Notes: generated from the letters alone by a model not told the origin. 64,000 nt of DNA from Schlesneria sp. (GCA_028291515.1 JAQGHU010000093.1:16486-80485); one strand, 5' to 3'. Counted from the stretch's first letter, positions 35,001-45,560 are shown. Numbers and translations: made by a program.

Positions 35001-35072
35001 GTCGGCAAAGGCGCTGCCAGCCACGAGTTCGATCGCGATCAGTGACGCGAGAAAATGGAATCGCCCCAGCAT
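32058..35072 (-). CDS. Planctomycete cytochrome c / DUF1549 / DUF1553 protein with LamG-like insert
   Basis: CLECH and CARCHDHKFDPI; ERWGRYWLD; HPELLDWLA; PQALALLN; WKDQSGRNHH..GDITELIVYDREL insert. Confidence 0.92.
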   Translation of the reverse strand: MLGRFHFLASLIAIELVAGSAFADAGAGDRFSRDVAMIFVKRCLECHNERDASGKLVLVDKASLAAGGESGPAVIAKDPEHSNLLERVVSGEMPPPKRGVSQKLTVAEIDALKGWIAEGAVWPEGRKLDLYEATTEVRGGRDWWSLQPVRRPSIPANAMLDTKSPIDAFIRAKLDAVQMQPSPAASRATLIKRIAFDLLGLPPTYEEIQEFERDSSPDAYERLVDRLLASPHFGERWGRYWLDVVRYADTCGYERDQEKPFAWKYRDWVVQAINEDLPYDRFIEQQLAGDEVSDRSEASVIATGFLRLGTWNDEPNDADEYKHERLEDMVHVTSTAFLSLTVKCARCHDHKFDPIPQTDYYRMAAAFWPGAIEPRGRELLGGPTKDELGFDVMGWTDIRQLPPLRLLRKGEPKQPQEVVEPAHLSIVPTLNQPLEPAPLGASTTHRRRQLAEWIAASKNPLTPRVLVNRLWMNHFGMGLVRSADNLGFTGDKPTHPELLDWLASEATAGASAASSHYSSLKRLHRMLVTSATYRQSSLHPKQDEYAQRDSGNQLWWRAERRRLEAEPLRDRLLFVGDDLDTRMTGPGFKPTIQAEALEGLSRKEGAWKPSPTEEQRRRAIYMFSQRSLLPPLMTTFDSSDTTLPCVQRPVSTVAPQALALLNNAFAHERSQALARRAMEPEVGLLAGAIMNKGYSVKGRADIEDDRRIRLAWQYALGRDPSNQEMADARQHFEWQVAHFGRTQLSTQDSILPRAGMALHLSADKGVTRDEDDLVVSWKDQSGRNHHASQPVASQRPRHVRNGPPLRWSVQFDGQKRFLHLAGQVITSQAFAIFAVVSDQSETIAHREIFSNWNEVGNVGSSLFFGMTGTKGARLSDDFSGVGQISHRSELFLLSGLSGATGTVVQQNGTDLASRSSPLSTRNLKGPYVIGQQGNIDGEYWHGDITELIVYDRELKTDERDAVNRYLMKRYGLQSSIEQLRDPRFLALASLCHVLLNTNEFIYVD

Positions 35073-35378
35073 CGTGGCTCCAGTTGATTTAGCGCGTTGC
35101 GGATCCAGTTGCAGTTCTCAATATGATAGCGAAGCACGATTGCAGACCACCATCGACAATGGTCACAAGGATTCTATTGAGTGCAGCCGTTTGGTGGTCG
35201 TCAATTGAGGCCAGAAGCGGAGGTGTGCAGGCATCATCGGATTCAGTTTCCTTACGATTTGGCAGAATTTGTCAGTCCATGGCAGGGTTTTGGGGGTATT
35301 GGAAGATTTGCCCCTTGAATACAAGGGAAATCGCGAAAGGTACTGACAAATGCGAGCCTTCCTGACGTCGGACTCCCA

Positions 35379-35519
35379 GTTCGGCGCGGGTCTCTGACCC
35401 CGCCGAAACGTGTGACCGGAGGTCTCCTTTTCCCTGGCGCAGAAACAGCGCCTGAAAGTGCCCGGGACTGGAGACCTTCGGTCGGCGGTTTCGGCGGGGT
35501 CGGGAGACCCGCGCCGAAC
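35379..35519. repeat. REP/MITE-like long palindrome
   Basis: Arms GTTCGGCGCGGGTCTC..GACCCCGCCGAAAC..GACCGGAGGTCTCC and their near-perfect complement. Confidence 0.85.
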
Positions 35520-35820
35520 AAGAAGGGGCGCCGAACGAGGGCGATTGAGTTGTCATGCGAACCCATATGATAAGTGGGGTTGTGTGTTGTTGGGCCAAGG
35601 GGTTAGGCCGCCCCGCTCAGGTAGGAGGTGGGTGGCGTGAAATTTCTTCGTTGTCAACTGCGGAACAGGGACCTCTGATCTTCCGCTAAGAGAGCGGCCC
35701 AGAGGCGTGCCCGTTGGCTACGGTGCACCTGCGACTATCGTCGTGACCCTGATTGTCCGTTTTGTGGTGACCTGATCAAGACGATGTTTGGCAAACTTGG
35801 GAACTATCTTTGAAATTGTC

Positions 35821-35870
35821 ACTGACAAATTTTGACACCCCAGGACAGATTTGGACAATGGGGGACAAAA
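35821..35870 (+). promoter_or_regulatory. Five GACA boxes at exact 10-bp spacing
   Basis: GACA at 35824, 35834, 35844, 35854, 35864; function is inferred. Confidence 0.6.
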
Positions 35871-36066
35871 CAGCCCTGTTTTCGGCAGTTTTCCTCAAAA
35901 AAGTGCGTGTCTACTGACAGTTGATTTAGCGACTGCAAAGGTAGGCCTGAAAAGTGCAGGTAGGAGGTGCTGGCTCAGTGCGAAAGCACGGATGCACTTC
36001 CGACGTTGCTCGCTTACTGATAAAACACACAGTCAGTAACCACGGTGATTTGGGGGGAGGGCAGGG

Positions 36067-36840
36067 ATGCCGGATTCACAGAAATCTCGACGATTGGCAG
36101 TATCGCGCAGTCGGCGACTGACGATCGACGTCCTGCATTACAACCGCCGTGTCCCGACTTGTGCCCATGATCGGCGTTCTGACCTGAGCCGACTCGCAGA
36201 ATTTCGCACTCGATTACCCCGGCGTATTTCGTGGTCGTTACTCTTCATCAAAGCATTCGCACTGGTCGCACAGAAGTATCCGGTCCTCAGGCAGTCCTAC
36301 ATTAACTGGCTGTGGCCGCACGTGCTGGAACATCCCTACAGCGTCGCAATGCTCGCCACGCAGCGAGACCATCGTGGCGAACCGTGGCTATTCTGGTCGC
36401 GGTTTGTTCAGCCCGAGCAGCGATCGTTGGAGGAAATGCAGCACGCGCTGAATCAGTATCAGTCCGAGCCTGTCGAGAAGATCTTCCTGCAGCAGTGGCG
36501 GCTGAGCGGTCTGCCGACATTGCTTCGTCGCTGCTTCTGGGGCTGGACCCTGAATTTTGCTGGCTCGAAACGTGCCAAACGAGTCGGAACATTCTTTCTG
36601 TCGACGTTGGCGAGCAAGGGGGTCGAAATCCAAGATCCTCCCGCGTTTCTGACCAGCAATCTGACTTATGGTCCATTGGACGCCAATGGCTGCTGTCGTG
36701 TCACGCTCTCCTACGATCACCGCCTGATGGACGGTTCCACCGTTGCGGATTGCCTGATCGAACTGGAAGCGACCTTGAATGGTGCCATCGCCGACGAATT
36801 GGCAGAGATCATCGCAAAATCAGAACGAGCCGCGGCTTGA
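36067..36840 (+). CDS. Stand-alone 2-oxoacid dehydrogenase E2 / CAT-like acyltransferase catalytic domain
   Basis: GTFFLSTL, LTYGPL, VTLSYDHRLMDG (HxxxDG); no lipoyl domain. Confidence 0.75.
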   Translation: MPDSQKSRRLAVSRSRRLTIDVLHYNRRVPTCAHDRRSDLSRLAEFRTRLPRRISWSLLFIKAFALVAQKYPVLRQSYINWLWPHVLEHPYSVAMLATQRDHRGEPWLFWSRFVQPEQRSLEEMQHALNQYQSEPVEKIFLQQWRLSGLPTLLRRCFWGWTLNFAGSKRAKRVGTFFLSTLASKGVEIQDPPAFLTSNLTYGPLDANGCCRVTLSYDHRLMDGSTVADCLIELEATLNGAIADELAEIIAKSERAAA

Positions 36841-36891
36841 TCACATCAGGCGACTTCCGCAACCACCTCACGTTGAAGAAATGCTGACGCC

Positions 36892-37716
36892 ATGAAGGAT
36901 CTCAAGGGACGGACCGCGGTGATCACGGGTGCATCCGCGGGGTTGGGCGTGCGAGTCGCACGAGCCCTCGCGCGTGAAGGGATGAACCTCGTGCTGGCAG
37001 CTCGTTCCGCCGACGCATTAGATTCGGTCGCGACCGAGATGCGCGGGCTCGGCGTAAAAGCCCTCGTGGTCCCAACCGATGTCTCGGACGAAAGCCAATT
37101 GGTTCGATTGGTCGAGCGCACGATGACCGAGTTCGGCGCTATCGACGTGCTGGTCAACAACGCAGGGATCGAAGCATTTCGGTCGTACCACGAACTGGAC
37201 CCCAACGACATTCGCCGCACGATCGAAGTCAACCTGACCGCCACACTATTGCTGACTCGTTTCGTTCTGCCGCACATGATCCAGGCCCGGCGTGGCCACA
37301 TCGTCAACATGGCGTCGATCGCGGGCAAGCAGGGGCCAGCCTATGGAGCGGCCTACGGAGCTTCCAAGGCGGGAATGATTGCCTTCACGCAAGCACTGCG
37401 GGGCGAGTACCGCAGCAGAGGAATCAGTTCCTCGGCAATCTGCCCCGGCTTCGCCAATGATGGCGGCATTTACGAAGTGATGAAGCAACGGATCGGTCGA
37501 GGCGTCCCCTGGTACCTCGGATCCACAACGGCCGAAGCGGTCGCCCGCGCGGTCGTCAAATCGATCAAAGGGGACCGCCCCGACTTGATCGTAAACGTCC
37601 CGGCCCTGCGTCCAATCTTCACCTTCTGCCAAGCCTTCCCCAGACTCGGCGAATGGATCGTCCACAAGGTGACGCTGCGATTCCTGAAGCAAGCCGGCAC
37701 CAGCCACCGCGAATAG
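36892..37716 (+). CDS. Short-chain dehydrogenase/reductase
   Basis: TGASAGLG, VNNAG, YGASK. Confidence 0.92.
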   Translation: MKDLKGRTAVITGASAGLGVRVARALAREGMNLVLAARSADALDSVATEMRGLGVKALVVPTDVSDESQLVRLVERTMTEFGAIDVLVNNAGIEAFRSYHELDPNDIRRTIEVNLTATLLLTRFVLPHMIQARRGHIVNMASIAGKQGPAYGAAYGASKAGMIAFTQALRGEYRSRGISSSAICPGFANDGGIYEVMKQRIGRGVPWYLGSTTAEAVARAVVKSIKGDRPDLIVNVPALRPIFTFCQAFPRLGEWIVHKVTLRFLKQAGTSHRE

Positions 37717-37728
37717 CATCGCAAGAAC

Positions 37729-37820
37729 GTAGGTTATGCTTCAGCATAACTTTTCAGACTCACAGTCGACGCCATCAAATACCGCCGAAGACAAAGAAGT
37801 TATGCTGAAGCATAACCTAC
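37729..37820. repeat. GTAG-type REP doublet (REPIN-like)
   Basis: Perfect 24-bp inverted repeat GTAGGTTATGCTTCAGCATAACTT, each arm self-palindromic, between convergent genes. Confidence 0.85.
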
Positions 37821-37856
37821 ACAGAGCGGTGTCAGTCCGTGGCCAACTCTTCTTCG

Positions 37857-38696
37857 TCAAGCCGCGCGTCGTGCTTCGGCCTCACCGGCAACCGCCACCT
37901 TCTTACGTTTGCGACTGGCACGGTTGAGTAGATCCAGAACTCCCGGAGCCAGCCATTTCGACCAGGCCAGCAGATGGGCCAGTGGCCCGACAAGCTTCAT
38001 CCGCTTGTTGCGATAGATGCACCGAATCGCCGCTTTCGAAACAGCTTCGATCGAACAGCACAGCCAACGCGGCGGATGCGGCACCGACTTGTCGCTCTTC
38101 GCCGATGCACACGACTTGTAGAGGTTCGTGAGCACCGGCCCAGGACAGAGAGCACTCACACCTAATCCACGGCGGCCGTATTCAGCTCGAATCGCTTCTG
38201 TGAAACCAATCAAGCCAAACTTGCTCGTGTGATAGGCTGCAAAGCGGCCTCCGGCCACCAGTCCGCTGATGCTGCATACATTCAAGATATGAGCGTCTGG
38301 TCGTTCGAGCAGGATCGGCAATAGCTCACGGGTGATCTGGATCGGTGCGAGCAGATTGATCTTCATCAACCAGTCCCACTGAGCCGCCGTCATCGAATGC
38401 GTCGGACCGTAGTAAGCGACGCCGGCATTGTTGACGAGGATGTCGACGTGTCCCCATTGCTGCAGCATCTGGCTCAAGACTCGACTGATCTCGGCCGGCT
38501 GACTGAGGTCGCACCGCTCGCCAATCGCGCTCACACCAATCTGTTTTGCTTCGGCGACAACGCTCGACAGCCCAGCCTCATCGATATCCAGCAGATAGAG
38601 ATCGGCTCCTTCGCGTGCGAGTGCCAGCGCAATGCTGCGGCCAATCCCAGCAGCGGCACCTGTCACCAAAGCCTGCTTGTGCCGAATCGACTTCAT
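37857..38696 (-). CDS. Short-chain dehydrogenase/reductase
   Basis: TGAAAGIG, VNNAG, YHTSK; start moved to MKSIRHK. Confidence 0.92.
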   Translation of the reverse strand: MKSIRHKQALVTGAAAGIGRSIALALAREGADLYLLDIDEAGLSSVVAEAKQIGVSAIGERCDLSQPAEISRVLSQMLQQWGHVDILVNNAGVAYYGPTHSMTAAQWDWLMKINLLAPIQITRELLPILLERPDAHILNVCSISGLVAGGRFAAYHTSKFGLIGFTEAIRAEYGRRGLGVSALCPGPVLTNLYKSCASAKSDKSVPHPPRWLCCSIEAVSKAAIRCIYRNKRMKLVGPLAHLLAWSKWLAPGVLDLLNRASRKRKKVAVAGEAEARRAA

Positions 38697-38773
38697 TGTA
38701 CGCAGAACTCTCTTTCCACCAGGCGACATGGCAGTGCACGATTCTGATCGCGAAAAAGTTGAATGCTCGTAAA

Positions 38774-38857
38774 TGGGAGGGCGAGGCTCCTGCCGAGCCG
38801 CGCGTGTTATTGTGAGACCATCGACATGCGCGGCTCGGCAGGAGCCTCGCCCTCCCA
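38774..38857. repeat. GGAG-type REP doublet
   Basis: Perfect 30-bp inverted repeat TGGGAGGGCGAGGCTCCTGCCGAGCCGCGC. Confidence 0.9.
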
Positions 38858-38944
38858 AATACAAAATCACAGCCTTGCCGCGGACATCGAGCGATTGCCA
38901 CGTATTCAGCATGCAGAATCACGCACCATCGTTTGGTGTGATGA

Positions 38945-40396
38945 CTACCGCGAATTCGCCAATCGGACAATGGCCTTCTTCACGAAGTCTTCCAGGTGAT
39001 TCCAAGAAGAAACCAAGTTCGCCAGATCAGGATCCGATGTCACGGGTGGATTGTTGGTCGGCGGATTATTGACAGGTGGATTTGTTACCGGCGGTTTCGT
39101 CCCTGGTGGCGGTTCCATCCCATGCGGATAGGGAATCGGACCTTCGGGACCATGCACGGCATTCGAATACTGCAACTGGATCGGCACGTATCCGCTGCCG
39201 TCCGCGAGCGGGATTTCCATGAAGACGGAACTCAACTGCTTGGCTTCCGCGATCGGATAGTCGCCCACTTCATTTCCGCTGTCAGATGTCCAACCGAGGT
39301 ATCGTGATGGATCTGGCCCCATCCCGGCGGCCGCATCGCCGACATCGGGGTCGGTTCGAGCTTCTTGTAGTTCATGATAGAACGTGCCGACGACGTTCTT
39401 CCAGTTTTGATCGAAGACGGGAATCCCGTTCGTCGCGCCAGTCGATGAGTTGCGTTCCGAATAGACACCCACCGCGTAGTAAACGGTAACGTTGCCGACA
39501 TGGACTGACCCGTGATAGCCACCTAGCCCTCCGGTCGAATCTTCGGCTTCTTCATGAGGGACAGCCTTGTTCGACACCGGTGCTTGTGCCATCCCGGCGT
39601 TAGGGTCACCCAGGACCGATCCCTTGGGAAGCATGAAACAGAAGACCGTATTGGGCAGATCGTAACCAGCGAATGCGCCACTGCTATACAAGCCGCTAAC
39701 CTGGCGCTCCAAATCGGTTTTCGGAACGAACGTCGGCTTCCAACCCGACAGGAAGAACGATCCCTTGAAAGTGTTCTTGAGCGGCTGATTGTTGAAGTAC
39801 TGGCAGATGACATTATTCAAGTTCGCGTCAGTCATCGCCCCGGCCAGCGCCTTATCGATATTGCGCCAATCATCATTGAGCCAAGCGGCCTGGCCGCCGA
39901 CATACACATTGGCCCAGGTCAAATTTTGAATTGTCCGTCCACCCCGATACCGCAGGTCTTCGTTCGGTGACGGAGGCAGGCCATTCGCCAGGGCTCCGTT
40001 TTGCGAGGAATCCGCCGATGACGCTGAGGTATTGATCGTGAGTTTGCGAGGTTTCGCTCCGCCGGTCGACGGCAACTGAGCTTGTCGAGTCAGAAACGGC
40101 ATAGATCGACCGTCAATCATCTGATCGTTAGACGCCAGCATCGCCAACGGACGCACGCCACCATTCTGCGCCTGCATCGACGCATGCGGCGGCAACGTGG
40201 CAAACGGCAGGACTCGCACAGATGTCGTCGTCGGCGACATCATCGGTTGAGTTGCAATCGGAGCTTGCGATTGCGGTGCCCCAGTACGAGTCGGCGGAAC
40301 GTTGTACGAAGACGGTCCACCCATCGGACCGCTGCTACAACCCATGGTGAGCAACGCCAGCATGAAGCTCAACCGCATAGTAAACGTCCCTGTCAT
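38945..40396 (-). CDS. Lipoprotein, PHI-1/EXORDIUM-like domain with HExxE motif
   Basis: Lipobox TMGC; YRGG, GYHGS, HELQEARTDP, EVGD, IQLQYSN; Pro/Asn-rich linkers. Confidence 0.55.
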   Translation of the reverse strand: MTGTFTMRLSFMLALLTMGCSSGPMGGPSSYNVPPTRTGAPQSQAPIATQPMMSPTTTSVRVLPFATLPPHASMQAQNGGVRPLAMLASNDQMIDGRSMPFLTRQAQLPSTGGAKPRKLTINTSASSADSSQNGALANGLPPSPNEDLRYRGGRTIQNLTWANVYVGGQAAWLNDDWRNIDKALAGAMTDANLNNVICQYFNNQPLKNTFKGSFFLSGWKPTFVPKTDLERQVSGLYSSGAFAGYDLPNTVFCFMLPKGSVLGDPNAGMAQAPVSNKAVPHEEAEDSTGGLGGYHGSVHVGNVTVYYAVGVYSERNSSTGATNGIPVFDQNWKNVVGTFYHELQEARTDPDVGDAAAGMGPDPSRYLGWTSDSGNEVGDYPIAEAKQLSSVFMEIPLADGSGYVPIQLQYSNAVHGPEGPIPYPHGMEPPPGTKPPVTNPPVNNPPTNNPPVTSDPDLANLVSSWNHLEDFVKKAIVRLANSR

Positions 40397-40704
40397 GGCG
40401 AATATCCTGCGCAATCCATTGCGCGTGAAGACACGATCGCACTCACGCCGCCGCGTAAACGGCAGATTCTGCCGGTTGATAACAGATGCTCCAAACCCTG
40501 ACTAGCCCTTGTTGGAGCAGCCTGTTCAAACTTTTAAGGTAAGCAACTGCGATCCGACATAAATTCTTTCCAGCAAGGAACTTCGTCGTTACGCTGACCG
40601 CGTGCATATCGAGTCCAAACGAACTCAACACAGCAGCTCTGGTCGAGTGGTTATCCGATTCCGTCTTAAGCTTTCCGGTGATCGGACATTCAAAGTCTCG
40701 ACCG

Positions 40705-41751
40705 TCACGGAAAGAAATCCGCGATGACATCGCCAATCAATTTACTGGGCGAGACGGGAATACCACGCTGCTCGATCGATTTGATCGTCTCTTTGTACTT
40801 GAGGTTGTCTCCCTCCTTCATCTTCAGCGGTTCCTCCAGCGTCCCCTTGGCAGTCCTATTCCAGGCTTTGGCGAGTTCAGAGAACTGGACGGTCATTTCC
40901 AGGCCAGTCCCACCCACGGCTTTCATCGATATTGCTTCTGCCCCCGCCAACACCTCTCCCATCGGTCTTCCGTCCTTCACCAATTGGGCAAGCTTCGCTC
41001 GATACATATCAAAAGTCGTCACCGCCTCCTTGCTGTCCTCGGACGACAGCGGCACGACGATCACAAATTGATCGCGAATGCGAGTCAATTGAATCGATCG
41101 CTCGGTACTCGCTGTCTGCAACATCTTGAGCGAGGTCGCATCGAAGGGCAGAGTGCCGTCACTACGCTTTGGCTTGGGAGACTCGGTCACCCCAGCCATC
41201 AAATCGAGCGCATGAGATGTAGACTCCCGAAACTCGTCCCACGTCACCATTGGCTTCTTGGCGACCTTCGACTTGTCCAGTTGGCCCTCAATCGCGCCGG
41301 CTAGAGCCGAAAGCGATGCGACCGCAATTGCATTCATCGTCTCACCGGGAATCACCTCGGTGTGGTGATAACCCAGTCGACCATGTTCGTCCTGATAGAA
41401 TTCGCCGGGGATGATTCGAATCGAGTCGAAATCAATCGCCGCATCGGTCGTTATCGGATTAGAACGGGAAGAATCGAGATCAATCCATCGATACGAGTGG
41501 CCACCTGTTCGTTCGATGGCAGGCACGGTCAGGAACTCAATCGGCGCGATGATGATCGATTCCCGCCGTTTCCAGATCAACTGGACGTGGTCCAGATCAC
41601 TGGGCTTCGCACAATGGATGTTCGTCCACGAGTGCAGGTGAACAAACGAATCCTCTTTCGCCTCATAACGAACGAAGTCCGTATGCGTCCCGCGAACTCC
41701 ACACCCCGCGCAAACCAGAATGGGCAGCCAGAACCAGGATCGAAGTTTCAT
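40705..41751 (-). CDS. Hypothetical lipoprotein
   Basis: MKLRSWFWLPILVCAGC lipobox; 348 aa. Confidence 0.7.
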   Translation of the reverse strand: MKLRSWFWLPILVCAGCGVRGTHTDFVRYEAKEDSFVHLHSWTNIHCAKPSDLDHVQLIWKRRESIIIAPIEFLTVPAIERTGGHSYRWIDLDSSRSNPITTDAAIDFDSIRIIPGEFYQDEHGRLGYHHTEVIPGETMNAIAVASLSALAGAIEGQLDKSKVAKKPMVTWDEFRESTSHALDLMAGVTESPKPKRSDGTLPFDATSLKMLQTASTERSIQLTRIRDQFVIVVPLSSEDSKEAVTTFDMYRAKLAQLVKDGRPMGEVLAGAEAISMKAVGGTGLEMTVQFSELAKAWNRTAKGTLEEPLKMKEGDNLKYKETIKSIEQRGIPVSPSKLIGDVIADFFP

Positions 41752-41784
41752 CAAATTTCTCCAACAGATTGATGCCTGTTTCCA

Positions 41785-42479
41785 GCACTTTTCAGGCCTA
41801 CCTTTGCAGTCGCTCAAACACTGTCAGTAAACATGCACTTTTTTGAGGAAAACTGCCAAAAATAGGGTTGTTTTGTCCCCCATTGTCAAAAGTTGTCCTC
41901 CAGTGTCAAAATTTGTCAGTGATAATTTCGAACAAAGATCCGAAGTTTGCCAAACATCGTCTTGATCAGCACACCACAAACGGGACAATCGTCTTCACGA
42001 CGATCGTCGCAGGTGCACCGTAACCAACGGGCACGCCTCTGGGCCGCTCTCTTAGCGGAAGGTCAGAGGTTCCTGTTCCTCTGTTGATAACGAAGAAGAG
42101 CGCGCTACCCACCCTCTTTCCTGAGCGGGGCGGTGTCAGCCCCTGACCCAAACACACACAACCCCACTCGCCATGCGGCAGTCGCGCTGGCCCGTCCAGT
42201 TCGGAACTGACAGCACGAGCAAAGGAGAATATGACCCCATGACAACCCATCATCACACCACAGATCAAGTCCTGATCGCCAACTTGGCCTCGAACCTCAC
42301 ACAGGCAATCTCAAGCTTTCCACTCTCCGCGACTTCGCGTCTTCGCGTGAGAAAATCTTCCACCCCCTCAAAACCCTGCCATGGACTGACAAACTCTGCC
42401 AAATCGTAAGGAAACAGAGCCCAGTGATGCCTGCATCCCTTCTCTTCTGCCCTCAATTAACCACCACGAAACGACTGCA
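41785..42479 (-). repeat. Copy 2 (inverted) of the long intergenic element
   Basis: Block B 41785-42168 and block A 42353-42479 match copy 1; the spacer between blocks differs. Confidence 0.9.
41871..41920 (-). promoter_or_regulatory. Five TGTC boxes at exact 10-bp spacing
   Basis: TGTC at 41874, 41884, 41894, 41904, 41914; function is inferred. Confidence 0.6.
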
Positions 42480-42584
42480 ACCACGTTCGGCTTCCGCCAA
42501 TCGACTAATTGCGGCCGAGCGAAGAGCAGGGTACAAGACATTCACTGCTGAATTAGTCTCACCTTTAAATCCCCAGGCCTCCAC

Positions 42585-45560
42585 ATGTTTGATCCGTACC
42601 GTAAGTGGTTGGGAATTCCGCCGAAGGATCAACCCCCAAACCATTATCGCTTGCTGGGGGTTGAGCTTTTCGAGAGTGATCTGGATGTGATCGAGGGAGC
42701 CGCCGAACGGCAGATGAATTTCGTCCGGCAGTATCAATCGGGTGAGTATGCGACCGCCGCAGCCAAGATCTTGAACGAGTTGGCAATTGCCCGTTTGTGC
42801 CTGTTGAAACCAGCGACAAAAACGGCCTACGACAAAAAACTGCGATCGGACCAAGCTCGACTCTCCGCTGCTGAGCAGCAGTTTTCTGATGTCGCGTTTG
42901 ACGATCTGCAGCCAGCCCCCAGAAAGAGAACTCGCAAGCCAAAGCCCGTATCCGCAAACCAATCGCTGCTCATCGGCGGTGGGATCGCAGCACTAATCAT
43001 CGTGCTGGCGGTCGTCATGCTTCCCCGTGGACGACGAAATCCGTCAGTCGACCAATCGAGCACGATCACTGCTGCGACTCCGGCCCCGAGCATCGAAAAA
43101 CCAACGCCGCCAGCCAAAATCGATCCGCCGTCACCAGATTCATTGTTGTGGACAGAGCCAAAGCTTGTTGCCGAACGAGCAGGGAATCCGATCGATCTGA
43201 TGAAATCAGTGGACATCGCTCGCGATGTCGCGCTGGGTGAATGGAAGCAAACGGCAACGGCGTTGATTGCCGCCCCGCATAGCCGTTTGTATGTGCCAGG
43301 AAAACTTCCAGACGACTATCAGATTAACCTTGTCGCACGCCGACTCGACGGAACCCAAGGATTGTTCGTGGGATTCATGATGGCCGGCCGTCAAGGAGTG
43401 GCGATCGTCGATGCATGGGGTTCAACAGTCAGCGGCCTGTATGTCGACGGCCGTGAAGTCAACGACAACTCAACAACCTTTCGAAGCAAGCCTCTGGCAG
43501 ATCATACGATTCAAATCGCGATTACCATTCATCCGGGCCATTTTCACATGGCCGTGGACGGGAAGACGATCACCAACTGGCACGGAAATCCAGAGCAACT
43601 GTCACTGTTTTTTGGTCTGGGCAGCCGCGAGTCTCTCTTTTTCGCCACTGCCGATTCCGGCTTCGTCATCGAATCGGCAACGCTGGTTCCCATCAAACCC
43701 GAGCCGCCCTATCCACGGCCCGACCGTCTAACAGATTCAGTTGATGTTCAGTCGCTGATCGATCTGGATCGTGATACGCAACGTGGGATCTGGGGCGCTA
43801 ACAAGGGAAAGATCTCCAGTCCCGAAGGACTGGGACAGGTCTGCCTGCCAGTGATGGTCCCCGAGGAATACACACTGTCGACGAAGGTCTTACGTCCGGA
43901 ATCCGCCGGCGGTGAACCGACAGTCATGTTCGGACTGATTGCCGGTCAATCGCGATGCCGCATTACCTTGAAGAGCGACGAAGGAGTGGCACTGGACATG
44001 ATCGATGGGCGTCGCTGGAATGAAAACGGGACGCGATTGGAGGTCCCATTCTGCCGTCCCGGTGTTCCTGCTCAGGTCGATTTCACAGTGACAAAGCAGG
44101 GCGTACGAATGGAAGTCGATGGAAAAACGTTCATTGATTGGCAAGGGGATTTTTGGCGGCTGTCGTCGCCTGATGAGTGGGCCACAGCAGATCATCGCAA
44201 GCTTTTTATCGCGACGAAGAGTCATTTCCAGTTCAGCGACATCAAGTTAGGTCCACCGAAGCCAGCGAGACCGTTTCCTCGACACGACAAAATTACGACA
44301 GACAGACCTCTTGATCTGCTTTCGATCATCGACCCCGTCCGTGATGCGAATCAGGGAACCTGGACGTCCGAAGGCCACGTGCTGCGGACAATGGCCGATC
44401 CAGCATTTGAATACTCAAAACTTGCGATTCCAGTCGATGTCCCGGAGGAATATCTCCTCACGATGCAAGTCGCCAGGGAAGCAGGCGGGCCTCACAACGA
44501 CGAGGCACTGTGTTTATTGCTACCTTTTGGGAATTCCCGAGCAGGGCTTGTGATCGATGGCCATCACTCGCAATTTACCGGCTTCGACCTCAGCAAATCC
44601 GACTTCGCCTCCAATCCGACAACTTTCAAAGGAACGGTCATTTCTCCGGACGCGGCCACCGAGATTGAAATTCAGGTGAGAAAAAATGGGGTCAAAATCA
44701 GCAGTGCCGGACGACAGATTGTCGATTGGAGCGGGAATCCAGCAAACTTCACCGTACAACCCCGTCACGCAGGTCCCGGCCGCGGAATCAGTCTGGGAGC
44801 ATGGAAGCAACGGTTTCGATTCGAGAAGTTGGAAATCCGCGCGCTCCCTCCCACAAGTCTCGCGGCCATTCCTGCGTTGCCTGCCGATGGGAATCTTTTG
44901 CCAGTCATTGACATCGCTCGTGATGTTCGAGAAGGGACATGGACAATCGGCGCCGAGGGGCTCCAATCGCCTGACCAGTACATGATCTCAAGATTGCGGA
45001 TTCCATTCACTCCACCGAGCAAGTACGCTCTGGAACTGATGGTCGAGCGTCGTGGGGGTGTCAGCGATCTGCTAATCGGACTGCCAATCGATGGACGTCC
45101 CTGCCTGGTCGCTTTCGATGGGTCTTTTGGGAAACGGGCGGGTCTGGAACTGGTAGATGGTCACTGGATCTACGACGCCGCCAATTTCACTGCGCGAGGA
45201 ACGGATTCTCACCTGCTGCCACAAGGTCAGCGTGTCAACGTAACCTGCTTCGTGCTTCCCGACACGCTGGTCGTGAACTGTGGCGATCGAGAGATCGTTC
45301 GTTGGCACGGAGATGCTCGGCGACTTTCACTCGCCCATCGCTATTTGCCGCCAAACTATTCAGACGAGGATCAAAAACTATTGTGGTTGGGAAGTTGGGC
45401 AACCAACTTTCGAATCACAAACCTGATTTTACGGCCGCTAACCACCGACGAGATCACAGAGCTCTCAACAAGCTTCACTGGCGTCTCCCCCACCACATCA
45501 CAATCGGCAGTCCCGCTGACGACGCGGGCTAAAATGACTGAGAGTTCCAATCGCAATTAA
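42585..45560 (+). CDS. Bitopic membrane protein: J-domain-like N-terminus and repeated beta-rich domains
   Basis: DPYRKWLG..ARLCLLKPATKTAYD (no HPD); one TM; four repeats starting DL...D..RD...G.W. Confidence 0.8.
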   Translation: MFDPYRKWLGIPPKDQPPNHYRLLGVELFESDLDVIEGAAERQMNFVRQYQSGEYATAAAKILNELAIARLCLLKPATKTAYDKKLRSDQARLSAAEQQFSDVAFDDLQPAPRKRTRKPKPVSANQSLLIGGGIAALIIVLAVVMLPRGRRNPSVDQSSTITAATPAPSIEKPTPPAKIDPPSPDSLLWTEPKLVAERAGNPIDLMKSVDIARDVALGEWKQTATALIAAPHSRLYVPGKLPDDYQINLVARRLDGTQGLFVGFMMAGRQGVAIVDAWGSTVSGLYVDGREVNDNSTTFRSKPLADHTIQIAITIHPGHFHMAVDGKTITNWHGNPEQLSLFFGLGSRESLFFATADSGFVIESATLVPIKPEPPYPRPDRLTDSVDVQSLIDLDRDTQRGIWGANKGKISSPEGLGQVCLPVMVPEEYTLSTKVLRPESAGGEPTVMFGLIAGQSRCRITLKSDEGVALDMIDGRRWNENGTRLEVPFCRPGVPAQVDFTVTKQGVRMEVDGKTFIDWQGDFWRLSSPDEWATADHRKLFIATKSHFQFSDIKLGPPKPARPFPRHDKITTDRPLDLLSIIDPVRDANQGTWTSEGHVLRTMADPAFEYSKLAIPVDVPEEYLLTMQVAREAGGPHNDEALCLLLPFGNSRAGLVIDGHHSQFTGFDLSKSDFASNPTTFKGTVISPDAATEIEIQVRKNGVKISSAGRQIVDWSGNPANFTVQPRHAGPGRGISLGAWKQRFRFEKLEIRALPPTSLAAIPALPADGNLLPVIDIARDVREGTWTIGAEGLQSPDQYMISRLRIPFTPPSKYALELMVERRGGVSDLLIGLPIDGRPCLVAFDGSFGKRAGLELVDGHWIYDAANFTARGTDSHLLPQGQRVNVTCFVLPDTLVVNCGDREIVRWHGDARRLSLAHRYLPPNYSDEDQKLLWLGSWATNFRITNLILRPLTTDEITELSTSFTGVSPTTSQSAVPLTTRAKMTESSNRN

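Follow-up and report, generated by a model that had tools for sequence, protein, structure and literature searches.

OmpR/PhoB-type regulators usually act at one or two dimer sites per promoter, which have evolved in place. Plasmid R1 carries at a single locus the 11-bp iterons of parC, to which ParR, a small ribbon-helix-helix protein with a partner ATPase, binds cooperatively; ParR represses its own synthesis and builds a higher-order nucleoprotein complex. At the right end of Tn7 the TnsB sites, which have a period of about 22 bp, overlap the tnsAB promoter; the element has inverted 5'-TGT...ACA-3' termini and a 5-bp duplication. The Correia elements of Neisseria are MITE-like interspersed repeats that contain promoters and protein sites. 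For planctomycetes, gene regulation and mobile DNA are, to our knowledge, almost unexplored.

Two further systems are of importance here. The pac region of the Bacillus phages SPP1/SF6, the target of the small terminase G1P, is direct-repeat, bent DNA that spans the promoter of G1P itself and is contacted by a ring with many weak helix-turn-helix (HTH) contacts, and a regulatory role has been proposed (PMC4737164). It should be noted that the DNA-binding domains of the SF6 small terminase have little sequence specificity (PMC4737164). Mobile promoters are highly similar upstream regions that are found, in a defined orientation, before non-homologous genes of one genome (Nijveen, Matus-Garcia and van Passel 2012, PMC3575422).

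In the following we describe an array of GACA boxes from Schlesneria sp. (Planctomycetaceae; genome of 8.59 Mb in 119 contigs, designated G000), which lies in a stretch of 64 kb that was analysed as a whole and is called the window. They belong to a 102-bp module at the head of a dispersed, directional cassette restricted to this lineage, and no other part of the module is as strongly constrained. Judged by sequence comparison, the array is probably, though by no means certainly, a docking platform on one face of the helix that overlaps a promoter and most likely serves an oligomer of ORF1, a small protein encoded in the longest copy of the cassette.

Phased boxes in a dispersed cassette

It had been predicted from the sequence of the window that five GACA boxes lie exactly 10 bp apart in each of two copies, with a sixth box 52 bp further out in both. 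The coordinates bear this out. In copy 1 the boxes start at positions 35824, 35834, 35844, 35854 and 35864 and the sixth at 35916, 52 bp from the fifth; in copy 2, where they read TGTC, the five start at 41874, 41884, 41894, 41904 and 41914 and the sixth at 41822. Copies 1 and 2 are the arms of an inverted repeat of 0.7–0.8 kb (35182–35967, minus strand, and 41775–42484, plus strand) with 82–88% identity. Copy 1 reads on the minus strand toward the gene for a 1004-aa protein of the PSD1/DUF1553 type (start at 35072), and copy 2 on the plus strand toward the gene for a 991-aa DnaJ-like protein, which starts at 42585. There is no homology between these two large ORFs flanking the arms; the repeated stretch is therefore non-coding upstream DNA and not a duplicated gene, and gene duplication, which was considered as the source of the repeat, is thus ruled out.

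The array is contained in a core module of 102 bp, which extends from 35821 to 35922 in copy 1 (minus strand) and from 41820 to 41921 in copy 2 (plus strand). In copy 1 it is composed of the five phased boxes (35824–35867, TGTC on the sense strand), an A/T-tract spacer (35868–35915) and the sixth box (35916–35919), the latter being the outermost position conserved in all families of the cassette (CTGTCA). The module was found in 51 copies by blastn and in two diverged ones, and is thus present at least 53 times in the genome, which corresponds to about one array per 150 kb. The two copies in the window are consequently not independent, since both belong to one genome-wide repeat family, and the original prediction that the array is conserved in both was correct but an understatement.

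A genome scan for phased GACA words had been suggested as a check. When the entire 8.6-Mb genome was scanned for at least four boxes at 10-bp spacing, for which the chance expectation is 0.004, there were 85 overlapping matches within the repeat family and two outside, both of which proved to be diverged copies. Across the copies only 8 of 995 bases at box positions deviate from the consensus (0.8%), whereas in the spacers 180 of 1188 do so (15.2%; Fisher p = 5e-40), and the divergence of the intervening bases noted for the two copies in the window is thus true for the family as a whole. The distance from box to box is 10 bp in 181 cases and 20 bp in 5 (one box being mutated), and out-of-phase boxes were found in none; two further distances, of 52 bp (the gap between the fifth and the sixth box) and of 34 bp (a flanking GACA in a copy that has lost 20 bp), are artefacts of the scan window and were excluded from this count. 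Copies with a reduced number of boxes are shorter by exactly 10 or 20 bp, i.e., by whole 10-bp units. Loss of the phasing in other copies had been named as an observation that would speak against a functional array; the phasing is retained throughout the approximately 50 copies, and the prediction has therefore withstood this test.

The sixth box is retained in 49–50 of the 51 copies. The spacer between it and the array holds a near-invariant sequence, GTTTTCCTCAAAAAAGTG (35888–35905; 2.9% non-consensus across copies), and an imperfect palindrome of the form CAAAACAG..CTGTTTT. The inner boundary of the module, at 35821, is sharp, conservation ending at the predicted position +2 of a transcript (see below). 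Among the longest copies of three species (G000, G044 and G011) the core is 98.1% identical. One element of the original prediction did not survive the comparison: the palindrome TTGTCA-C-TGACAA with which copy 1 begins is confined to this copy and one or two others, the base position left of the first box differing by family and being unconserved.

A second conserved module, here called the end (L) module (...CCCTGCCATGGACTGACAAATTCTGCCAWWTCGTAAGG), accompanies each core on its own strand; the genome has 52 copies of it. The end module is about 50 bp long and has three boxes at 10 bp, CTGCCA-N4-CTGACA-N4-CTGCCA, which are inverted relative to the array. In copy 1 it is located at 35250–35297 on the minus strand (TGGCAG at 35260, TGTCAG at 35270 and TGGCAG at 35280) and in copy 2 at 42369–42411 on the plus strand (CTGCCA at 42376, CTGACA at 42386 and CTGCCA at 42396). 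The distance from core to end module is generally 256–594 bp and 1.4 kb in the longest copy, referred to below as the master copy. The paired units comprise 45 gene-less ones of 0.4–0.75 kb, to which both copies in the window belong, and one of 1.54 kb. All share the ends CTGTCA... and ...CTGCCAWWTCGTAAGG, the outer boundaries varying between families. The families are set by the interior of the cassette: family A has about 17 copies of 0.6–0.75 kb, including both in the window, and family B about 19–21 copies of 0.45 kb, and there are a few other forms.

The cassette is directional. In 40 of 46 copies transcription of the gene beside the end module leads away from the unit; on the side of the array the genes are split 25:23. 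The genes downstream are mutually unrelated and include groEL, recA and genes for an aspartokinase, a sulfatase, a PSD1-type protein and a giant DnaJ-like protein. For example, copies lie about 150 bp upstream of recA (contig C101) and about 290 bp upstream of groEL (C5:186053), pointing into both genes. Near-identical upstream sequence before non-homologous genes and oriented toward them is what characterizes putative mobile promoters, and many short non-coding copies sharing their ends with a longer gene-bearing copy is what characterizes MITEs; both are found here.

The intergenic DNA of G000 is unusually rich in repeats of other kinds, and the flanks of 12 further copies of the cassette are full of them. 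Nested in copy 1 there is a palindrome (35396–35501; arms of 32 nt, loop of 42 nt) outside the cassette consensus, about 74 bp of which are absent from the orthologous copy in G044, which suggests a small insertion independent of the cassette. The sequence of a near-perfect palindrome at 38769–38862 (GGGAGGGCGAGGCTCCTGCCGAGCCGCGC...; arms of 39 nt) is also present inside the master copy, around 102130–102210 of contig C21, and therefore appears to represent a separate REP-like repeat family. A perfect inverted repeat of 24 nt (GTAGGTTATGCTTCAGCATAACTT) at 37729–37820 lies between the convergent ends of two ORFs (36892–37716, plus strand, and 37857–38912, minus strand), and a related word, GCTGAAGCATAACCTAC, flanks a cassette copy on contig C66. 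The flanks of family-B copies (e.g., C80:301840, plus strand, and C114:31029, minus strand) have more repeat modules before the downstream genes, e.g., GTAGCCAAGGTCGCCAAGACCTTGGGCG...CGCCCAATCTCTTGGCGAGATTGGCTAC and GCGCATGACACAAC.

Distribution and putative transcription signals

At least 40 copies of the core are present in G044, at least 21 in G011 and at least 11 in G016, and each of these carriers, like G000, possesses a single intact ORF1, which follows a core copy. In the other approximately 37 relatives searched (21 congeneric and 16 from other genera) and in G043 the core is absent, except for one weak partial match in G010; neither ORF1 nor the core was found in G043, G005, G013 and G023. 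The locus of the master copy is common to G000 and G044, and the masters of G011 and G016 are found in unrelated flanks. Of the two copies in the window, copy 1 has an orthologue in G044; at the site of copy 2 there are 93 bp of unrelated DNA in that genome. From the presence and absence among sister species and from the differing flanks of the masters it follows that the unit has moved or has been gained and lost recently. The five-gene block of 5.8 kb between the two copies (35968–41774) has the same order and orientation in G044 (L055), where it is accompanied by one cassette copy, and an inversion between the two repeats was not seen when the window was compared with G044.

The array with its 5+1 boxes and the end module with its three inverted ones could be subterminal transposase sites, as in Tn7 and Mu, in which case the approximately 50 short units would be non-autonomous deletion derivatives and the overlap with a promoter would be incidental or autoregulatory. 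We regard this as unlikely. It is true that phased boxes are found at both ends in inverse orientation, that both ends are more conserved than the family-specific interior, that there are one long and many short copies per genome, and that the units are distributed patchily within the genus, with the differences between sister species and between the flanks of the masters just described. However, terminal inverted repeats and target-site duplications were not found in 41–42 aligned ends, outer boundaries differ by family, and neither the 5'-TG...CA-3' termini with a fixed duplication nor the DDE gene in an autonomous copy that define Tn7 and Mu are present. The master copy encodes only ORF1 and ORF2 and no recombinase of the DDE, HUH, serine or tyrosine type; no array of at least four boxes exists outside the family, e.g., flanking a larger element; and the single empty site examined, that of copy 2 in G044, is a replacement of 93 bp rather than a clean insertion. 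A search of the genome for PF09299 (Tn7/Mu transposase) gave no match, but the controls were silent, too. Two candidates were rejected in this connection: a TTCGAG direct repeat in one sub-group of family B, tried as target duplication, is part of the element itself, and G043 could not serve as empty site for copy 1, its intergenic DNA being too diverged for the breakpoints to be placed.

As to transcription, a promoter-like site is found within the array of copy 2 (41883–41912, plus strand) with TTGTCA, an 18-nt spacer and (TG)CAAAAT, which amounts to 9 of 12 matches plus a TG extension. Transferred by alignment to copy 1, this predicts at the level of consensus a leftward sigma-70-type promoter at 35829–35858 (minus strand), with a −35 element at 35853–35858 (TTGTCC, where most copies have TTGTCA) and TG-n-CAAAAT at 35829–35837. 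The start would fall near 35822, on the border of the conserved core, and in copy 2 near 41919 (plus strand). We thus infer that the array overlaps the promoter of the cassette, with the qualification that the −10 element is weak in the masters (CAAAAA), that the −35 element of copy 1 is TTGTCC, and that a mirror promoter on the opposite strand scores equally. A sigma-54 promoter in the conserved GGCC-N-TTGCA right of the array was considered and rejected, the spacing from GG to GC being one base short.

The sense of transcription is from the array toward the end module, since ORF1, ORF2 and the terminator of family B are on that strand. This terminator is present in 19 of 19 family-B copies as a GC-rich hairpin (−27 to −44 kcal/mol) followed by U5–8, about 210 nt past the array; its loop is variable, and its stem has compensatory and G.U changes, which would be A.C mismatches if the other strand were transcribed. 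A canonical terminator at this distance places the array at the start of a transcription unit. In family A the leader has two nearly invariant hairpins, P1 and P2, at 35706–35729 and 35672–35705 in copy 1 (minus strand) and at 42012–42035 and 42036–42069 in copy 2 (plus strand). In P1 (GUGGACCGUAACCAACGGCCAC) a C-G pair has changed to U-A, with a U.G intermediate within family A. A P1-like hairpin occurs in family B as well, where the 5' arm of the terminator overlaps P1, an arrangement that looks like an attenuator. A coding leader, or an upstream ORF after the end module, was rejected owing to frameshifts and stops in several copies. Rfam gave no match at gathering score in the window, the two matches in 35050–36070 being at chance level (E about 0.5).

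Could the array be nothing but a mobile promoter, its 10-bp period reflecting overlapping −35/−10-like hexamers which, together with UP-like A/T tracts, are read by RNA polymerase alone and need no dedicated binder? The boxes TTGACA/TTGTCA do match sigma-70 hexamers on both strands, conservation stops where the transcript is predicted to start, and the units precede genes that are not related to one another and are directed into them, which is the pattern reported for promoter reuse (PMC3575422). Nevertheless, RNA polymerase needs two hexamers rather than five invariant boxes and another at a distance of five turns; inverted boxes of the same kind also occur in the end module, far from any promoter; and the strict co-occurrence with ORF1 would be left unexplained. 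We therefore consider this quite improbable.

ORF1 as candidate binder

The preferred reading of the array as a docking platform for an ORF1 oligomer starts from the master copy, which in G000 is located on contig C21 (100787–102330, about 1.55 kb) and consists of array, structured leader, ORF1, ORF2 and the 50-bp end module, the two ORFs overlapping between leader and end module. ORF1 (C21:101259–101633) has 124 amino acids and matches HTH_23 (5e-5) and, below the cut-off of Pfam, Sf6_terminase (1e-3), as well as PHROG 2538, a terminase small subunit (2e-7). In the AlphaFold model (pLDDT 92.6) an HTH (residues 2–40, with the recognition helix at 33–40) is followed by two long helices (43–78 and 84–123). 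The leading Foldseek matches, 2AO9 (probability 0.96, E 0.02) and 7JOQ, are small terminases; the TM score is only about 0.3, and N-terminal domains of the TetR type score nearly as well. 2AO9 is given as a small terminase in the literature (PMC4737164). In the model ORF1 thus has an N-terminal HTH and a putative helical oligomerization domain like those of a small terminase, the significance of the scores being modest.

ORF2 (about 101–127 aa) has no family match in profile searches. Between the masters of G000, G044 and G011 the leader is 95–96% identical, ORF1 95%, the end module 96–100% and ORF2 65–85%; it is indeed noticeable how fast ORF2 (C21:101609–101992 in G000) diverges among sisters at the nucleotide level. 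Only an N-terminal RLxKLE motif is common to the ORF2-type partners of distant ORF1 homologues (L150, L151).

The array with its A/T tracts is found 365–450 bp upstream of ORF1 in four of four masters and does not reach the start codon. Copy 2 has a probable remnant of the first approximately 20 codons of ORF1 at 42239–42300 on the plus strand (MTTHHHTTDQVLIANLAS, compared with MSAHRRDTDRILIASLAS in the master), a local match of 19 of 22 nt and 10 of 19 identical residues, which is weak; it fits the view that the short units are internal-deletion derivatives. Homologues of ORF1 with 46–76% identity were found without a TGTC array in the upstream DNA present (L138, L141, L146 and L147), so that the link between protein and array comes from one clade. 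These distant homologues adjoin Terminase_4, or MT-A70 plus an integrase. At L147 (313–340) a P1-like hairpin (GTGCACCGGAAGAACCGGGCA) lies 5' of an ORF1 homologue of 54% identity, again without a TGTC array, and the leader hairpin may predate the array.

The original prediction had seen in the array a cooperative protein-binding platform on one face of the helix, and this is still the best reading, the boxes being far more constrained than the spacers and the phase unbroken in about 50 copies, with the A/T tracts lying between the array and the in-phase sixth box. The binders it had named are not supported: the array has no linked gene for a response regulator, an excisionase or a DDE/TnsB-type transposase, and the sole gene that travels with it is ORF1. 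What the repeat duplicates is the control region of a gene for a phage-terminase-like DNA-binding protein, and it is therefore most likely that the boxes serve for the docking of a protein. An oligomer of ORF1 would be the most economical binder, because no other gene travels with the array, because ORF1 has an HTH fused to a putative oligomerization hairpin, and because small terminases recognize bent DNA with direct repeats across their own promoters. However, the strong sequence constraint of the boxes would fit a classical sequence-specific binder equally well.

With the predicted promoter, the boxes would lie near positions −45, −35, −25, −15 and −5 relative to the start of transcription and the sixth near −97. 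An oligomeric HTH protein, most likely ORF1, would touch a box at each turn of the helix, always from the same side of DNA bent by the A/T tracts, much as small terminases do at pac. Once bound, it would regulate, and probably repress or auto-regulate, the transcript that begins at the array's inner edge. In the master copy this transcript would pass through the leader and on into ORF1; in gene-less copies it would head for the neighbouring host gene.

The resemblance of ORF1 to small terminases raises the question whether the arrays are working pac-like sites, i.e., points on the chromosome from which ORF1 and a large terminase would initiate packaging or some other DNA transaction. In SPP1/SF6 the pac regions are direct-repeat, bent-DNA platforms spanning the terS promoter (PMC4737164), there is about one array per 150 kb, and the genome has one TerL-like gene, located in a phage-like cluster (C82:165000–192000; Terminase_6N type, 171206–172714). 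This cluster has a 174-aa ORF just upstream of TerL and large ORFs downstream. But in none of the four genomes are large terminase or virion genes beside ORF1, after which there are just ORF2 and the end module; the TerL cluster, with an upstream ORF of its own, has no array or cassette copy nearby; and the bias of the copies toward the 5' side of genes as well as the built-in leader and terminator indicate transcription and not packaging. Working pac-like sites are thus very improbable.

A more far-reaching proposal may be made, which is conceivable but doubtful. A small-terminase fold as known from phages, kept by this Schlesneria clade as a single-copy chromosomal gene, could form a ring that reads about 50 dispersed phased operators (one per approximately 150 kb, including those at recA and groEL) and would thus act as a DNA-wrapping global regulator, or as a marker for another DNA transaction such as the initiation of packaging, with docking sites that propagate themselves. 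By comparison, it is hardly credible that the arrays mark a regulon of about 50 co-regulated genes under a chromosomal regulator of the host, be it of the OmpR/PhoB type or another: there are TGTCA-like direct repeats at 10 bp upstream of genes, but the 102 bp and hundreds of bp around them are shared at 82–94% identity, which means common descent and not convergent sites, most members of the genus lack the family although they keep the same housekeeping genes, the target genes (recA, groEL and those for aspartokinase, sulfatase and PSD1-type protein) have no common theme, and no regulator gene except ORF1 tracks the array.

The locus offers a concrete pair: a single small protein with an HTH, and some 50 nearly identical sites in helical phase that precede diverse genes. 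If ORF1 binds the arrays, an HTH ring of the terminase type would have been reused for chromosomal regulation, and the control region of a gene would be seen multiplying and rewiring its neighbours. If it does not, there is still a clean directional interspersed repeat that carries a putative promoter. The repeat family also accounts for many breaks between contigs in these assemblies.

Comparison with described systems

The defining features of the families named at the outset were compared one by one, and none of these families is fully matched; a search of the available literature for a described equivalent of the cassette yielded only general precedents. With sites of the OmpR/PhoB type the array shares a TGTCA-like core and direct repeats about one helical turn apart, within the 10–11 bp typical of these regulators. 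It has, however, no linked winged-helix regulator, and the whole region has been transposed or duplicated as a unit of 0.45–1.55 kb. As in parC/ParR of plasmid R1, there are two sets of phased short iterons around a promoter, here a putative one, but the Schlesneria boxes are dispersed around the chromosome, and the fold of ParR is a ribbon-helix-helix.

The similarity to Tn7 lies in the asymmetric ends, with the sites more densely packed at one of them, in an inward promoter, here a predicted one, inside a multi-site end and in the GACAAA-type box, which resembles the cores of TnsB sites. The 5+1 boxes at one end and the three inverted ones at the other may or may not correspond to the several inverted transposase sites in each end of Tn7 and Mu, their period being 10 bp and not about 22. 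Unlike Tn7, the cassette has neither inverted 5'-TGT...ACA-3' termini nor a 5-bp duplication nor genes for TnsA, TnsB and TnsC. MITE-like repeats are similar in that there are tens of short, intergenic, non-coding copies which fall into sub-families, are restricted to a lineage and may affect the expression of neighbours; they differ from the cassette, which is without terminal inverted repeats and target duplications, is strictly oriented and has a long copy without recognizable transposase.

Mobile promoters have the same placement and orientation as the Schlesneria units. The difference is that here the unit is a whole cassette, which besides the array includes an end module and a leader with a putative attenuator or a terminator, with a gene-bearing master and a candidate binder, and that its promoter activity is predicted. 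By genomic behaviour, reused or mobile promoters (PMC3575422), together with promoter-bearing MITE-like repeats, would appear to be the closest analogues.

By mechanism, the closest known system would be pac of SPP1/SF6 with its G1P. Common to both is a small protein whose N-terminal HTH is followed by a helical hairpin for oligomerization, a putative function in the case of ORF1. The platform of direct repeats and A/T-tract DNA, which in the phages spans the promoter region of the gene for the binder, would in Schlesneria overlap the predicted promoter. In both, many weak HTHs are proposed to act on one face of the DNA and a double role including gene regulation has been put forward. The differences are that ORF1 of Schlesneria adjoins neither a large terminase nor head genes and that its membership in the small terminases is indicated by weak HMM and fold scores; that the array is 365–450 bp upstream of the gene and not over its start; that the boxes are strongly constrained in sequence; and that the Schlesneria array is present about 50-fold on the chromosome in the form of gene-less copies.
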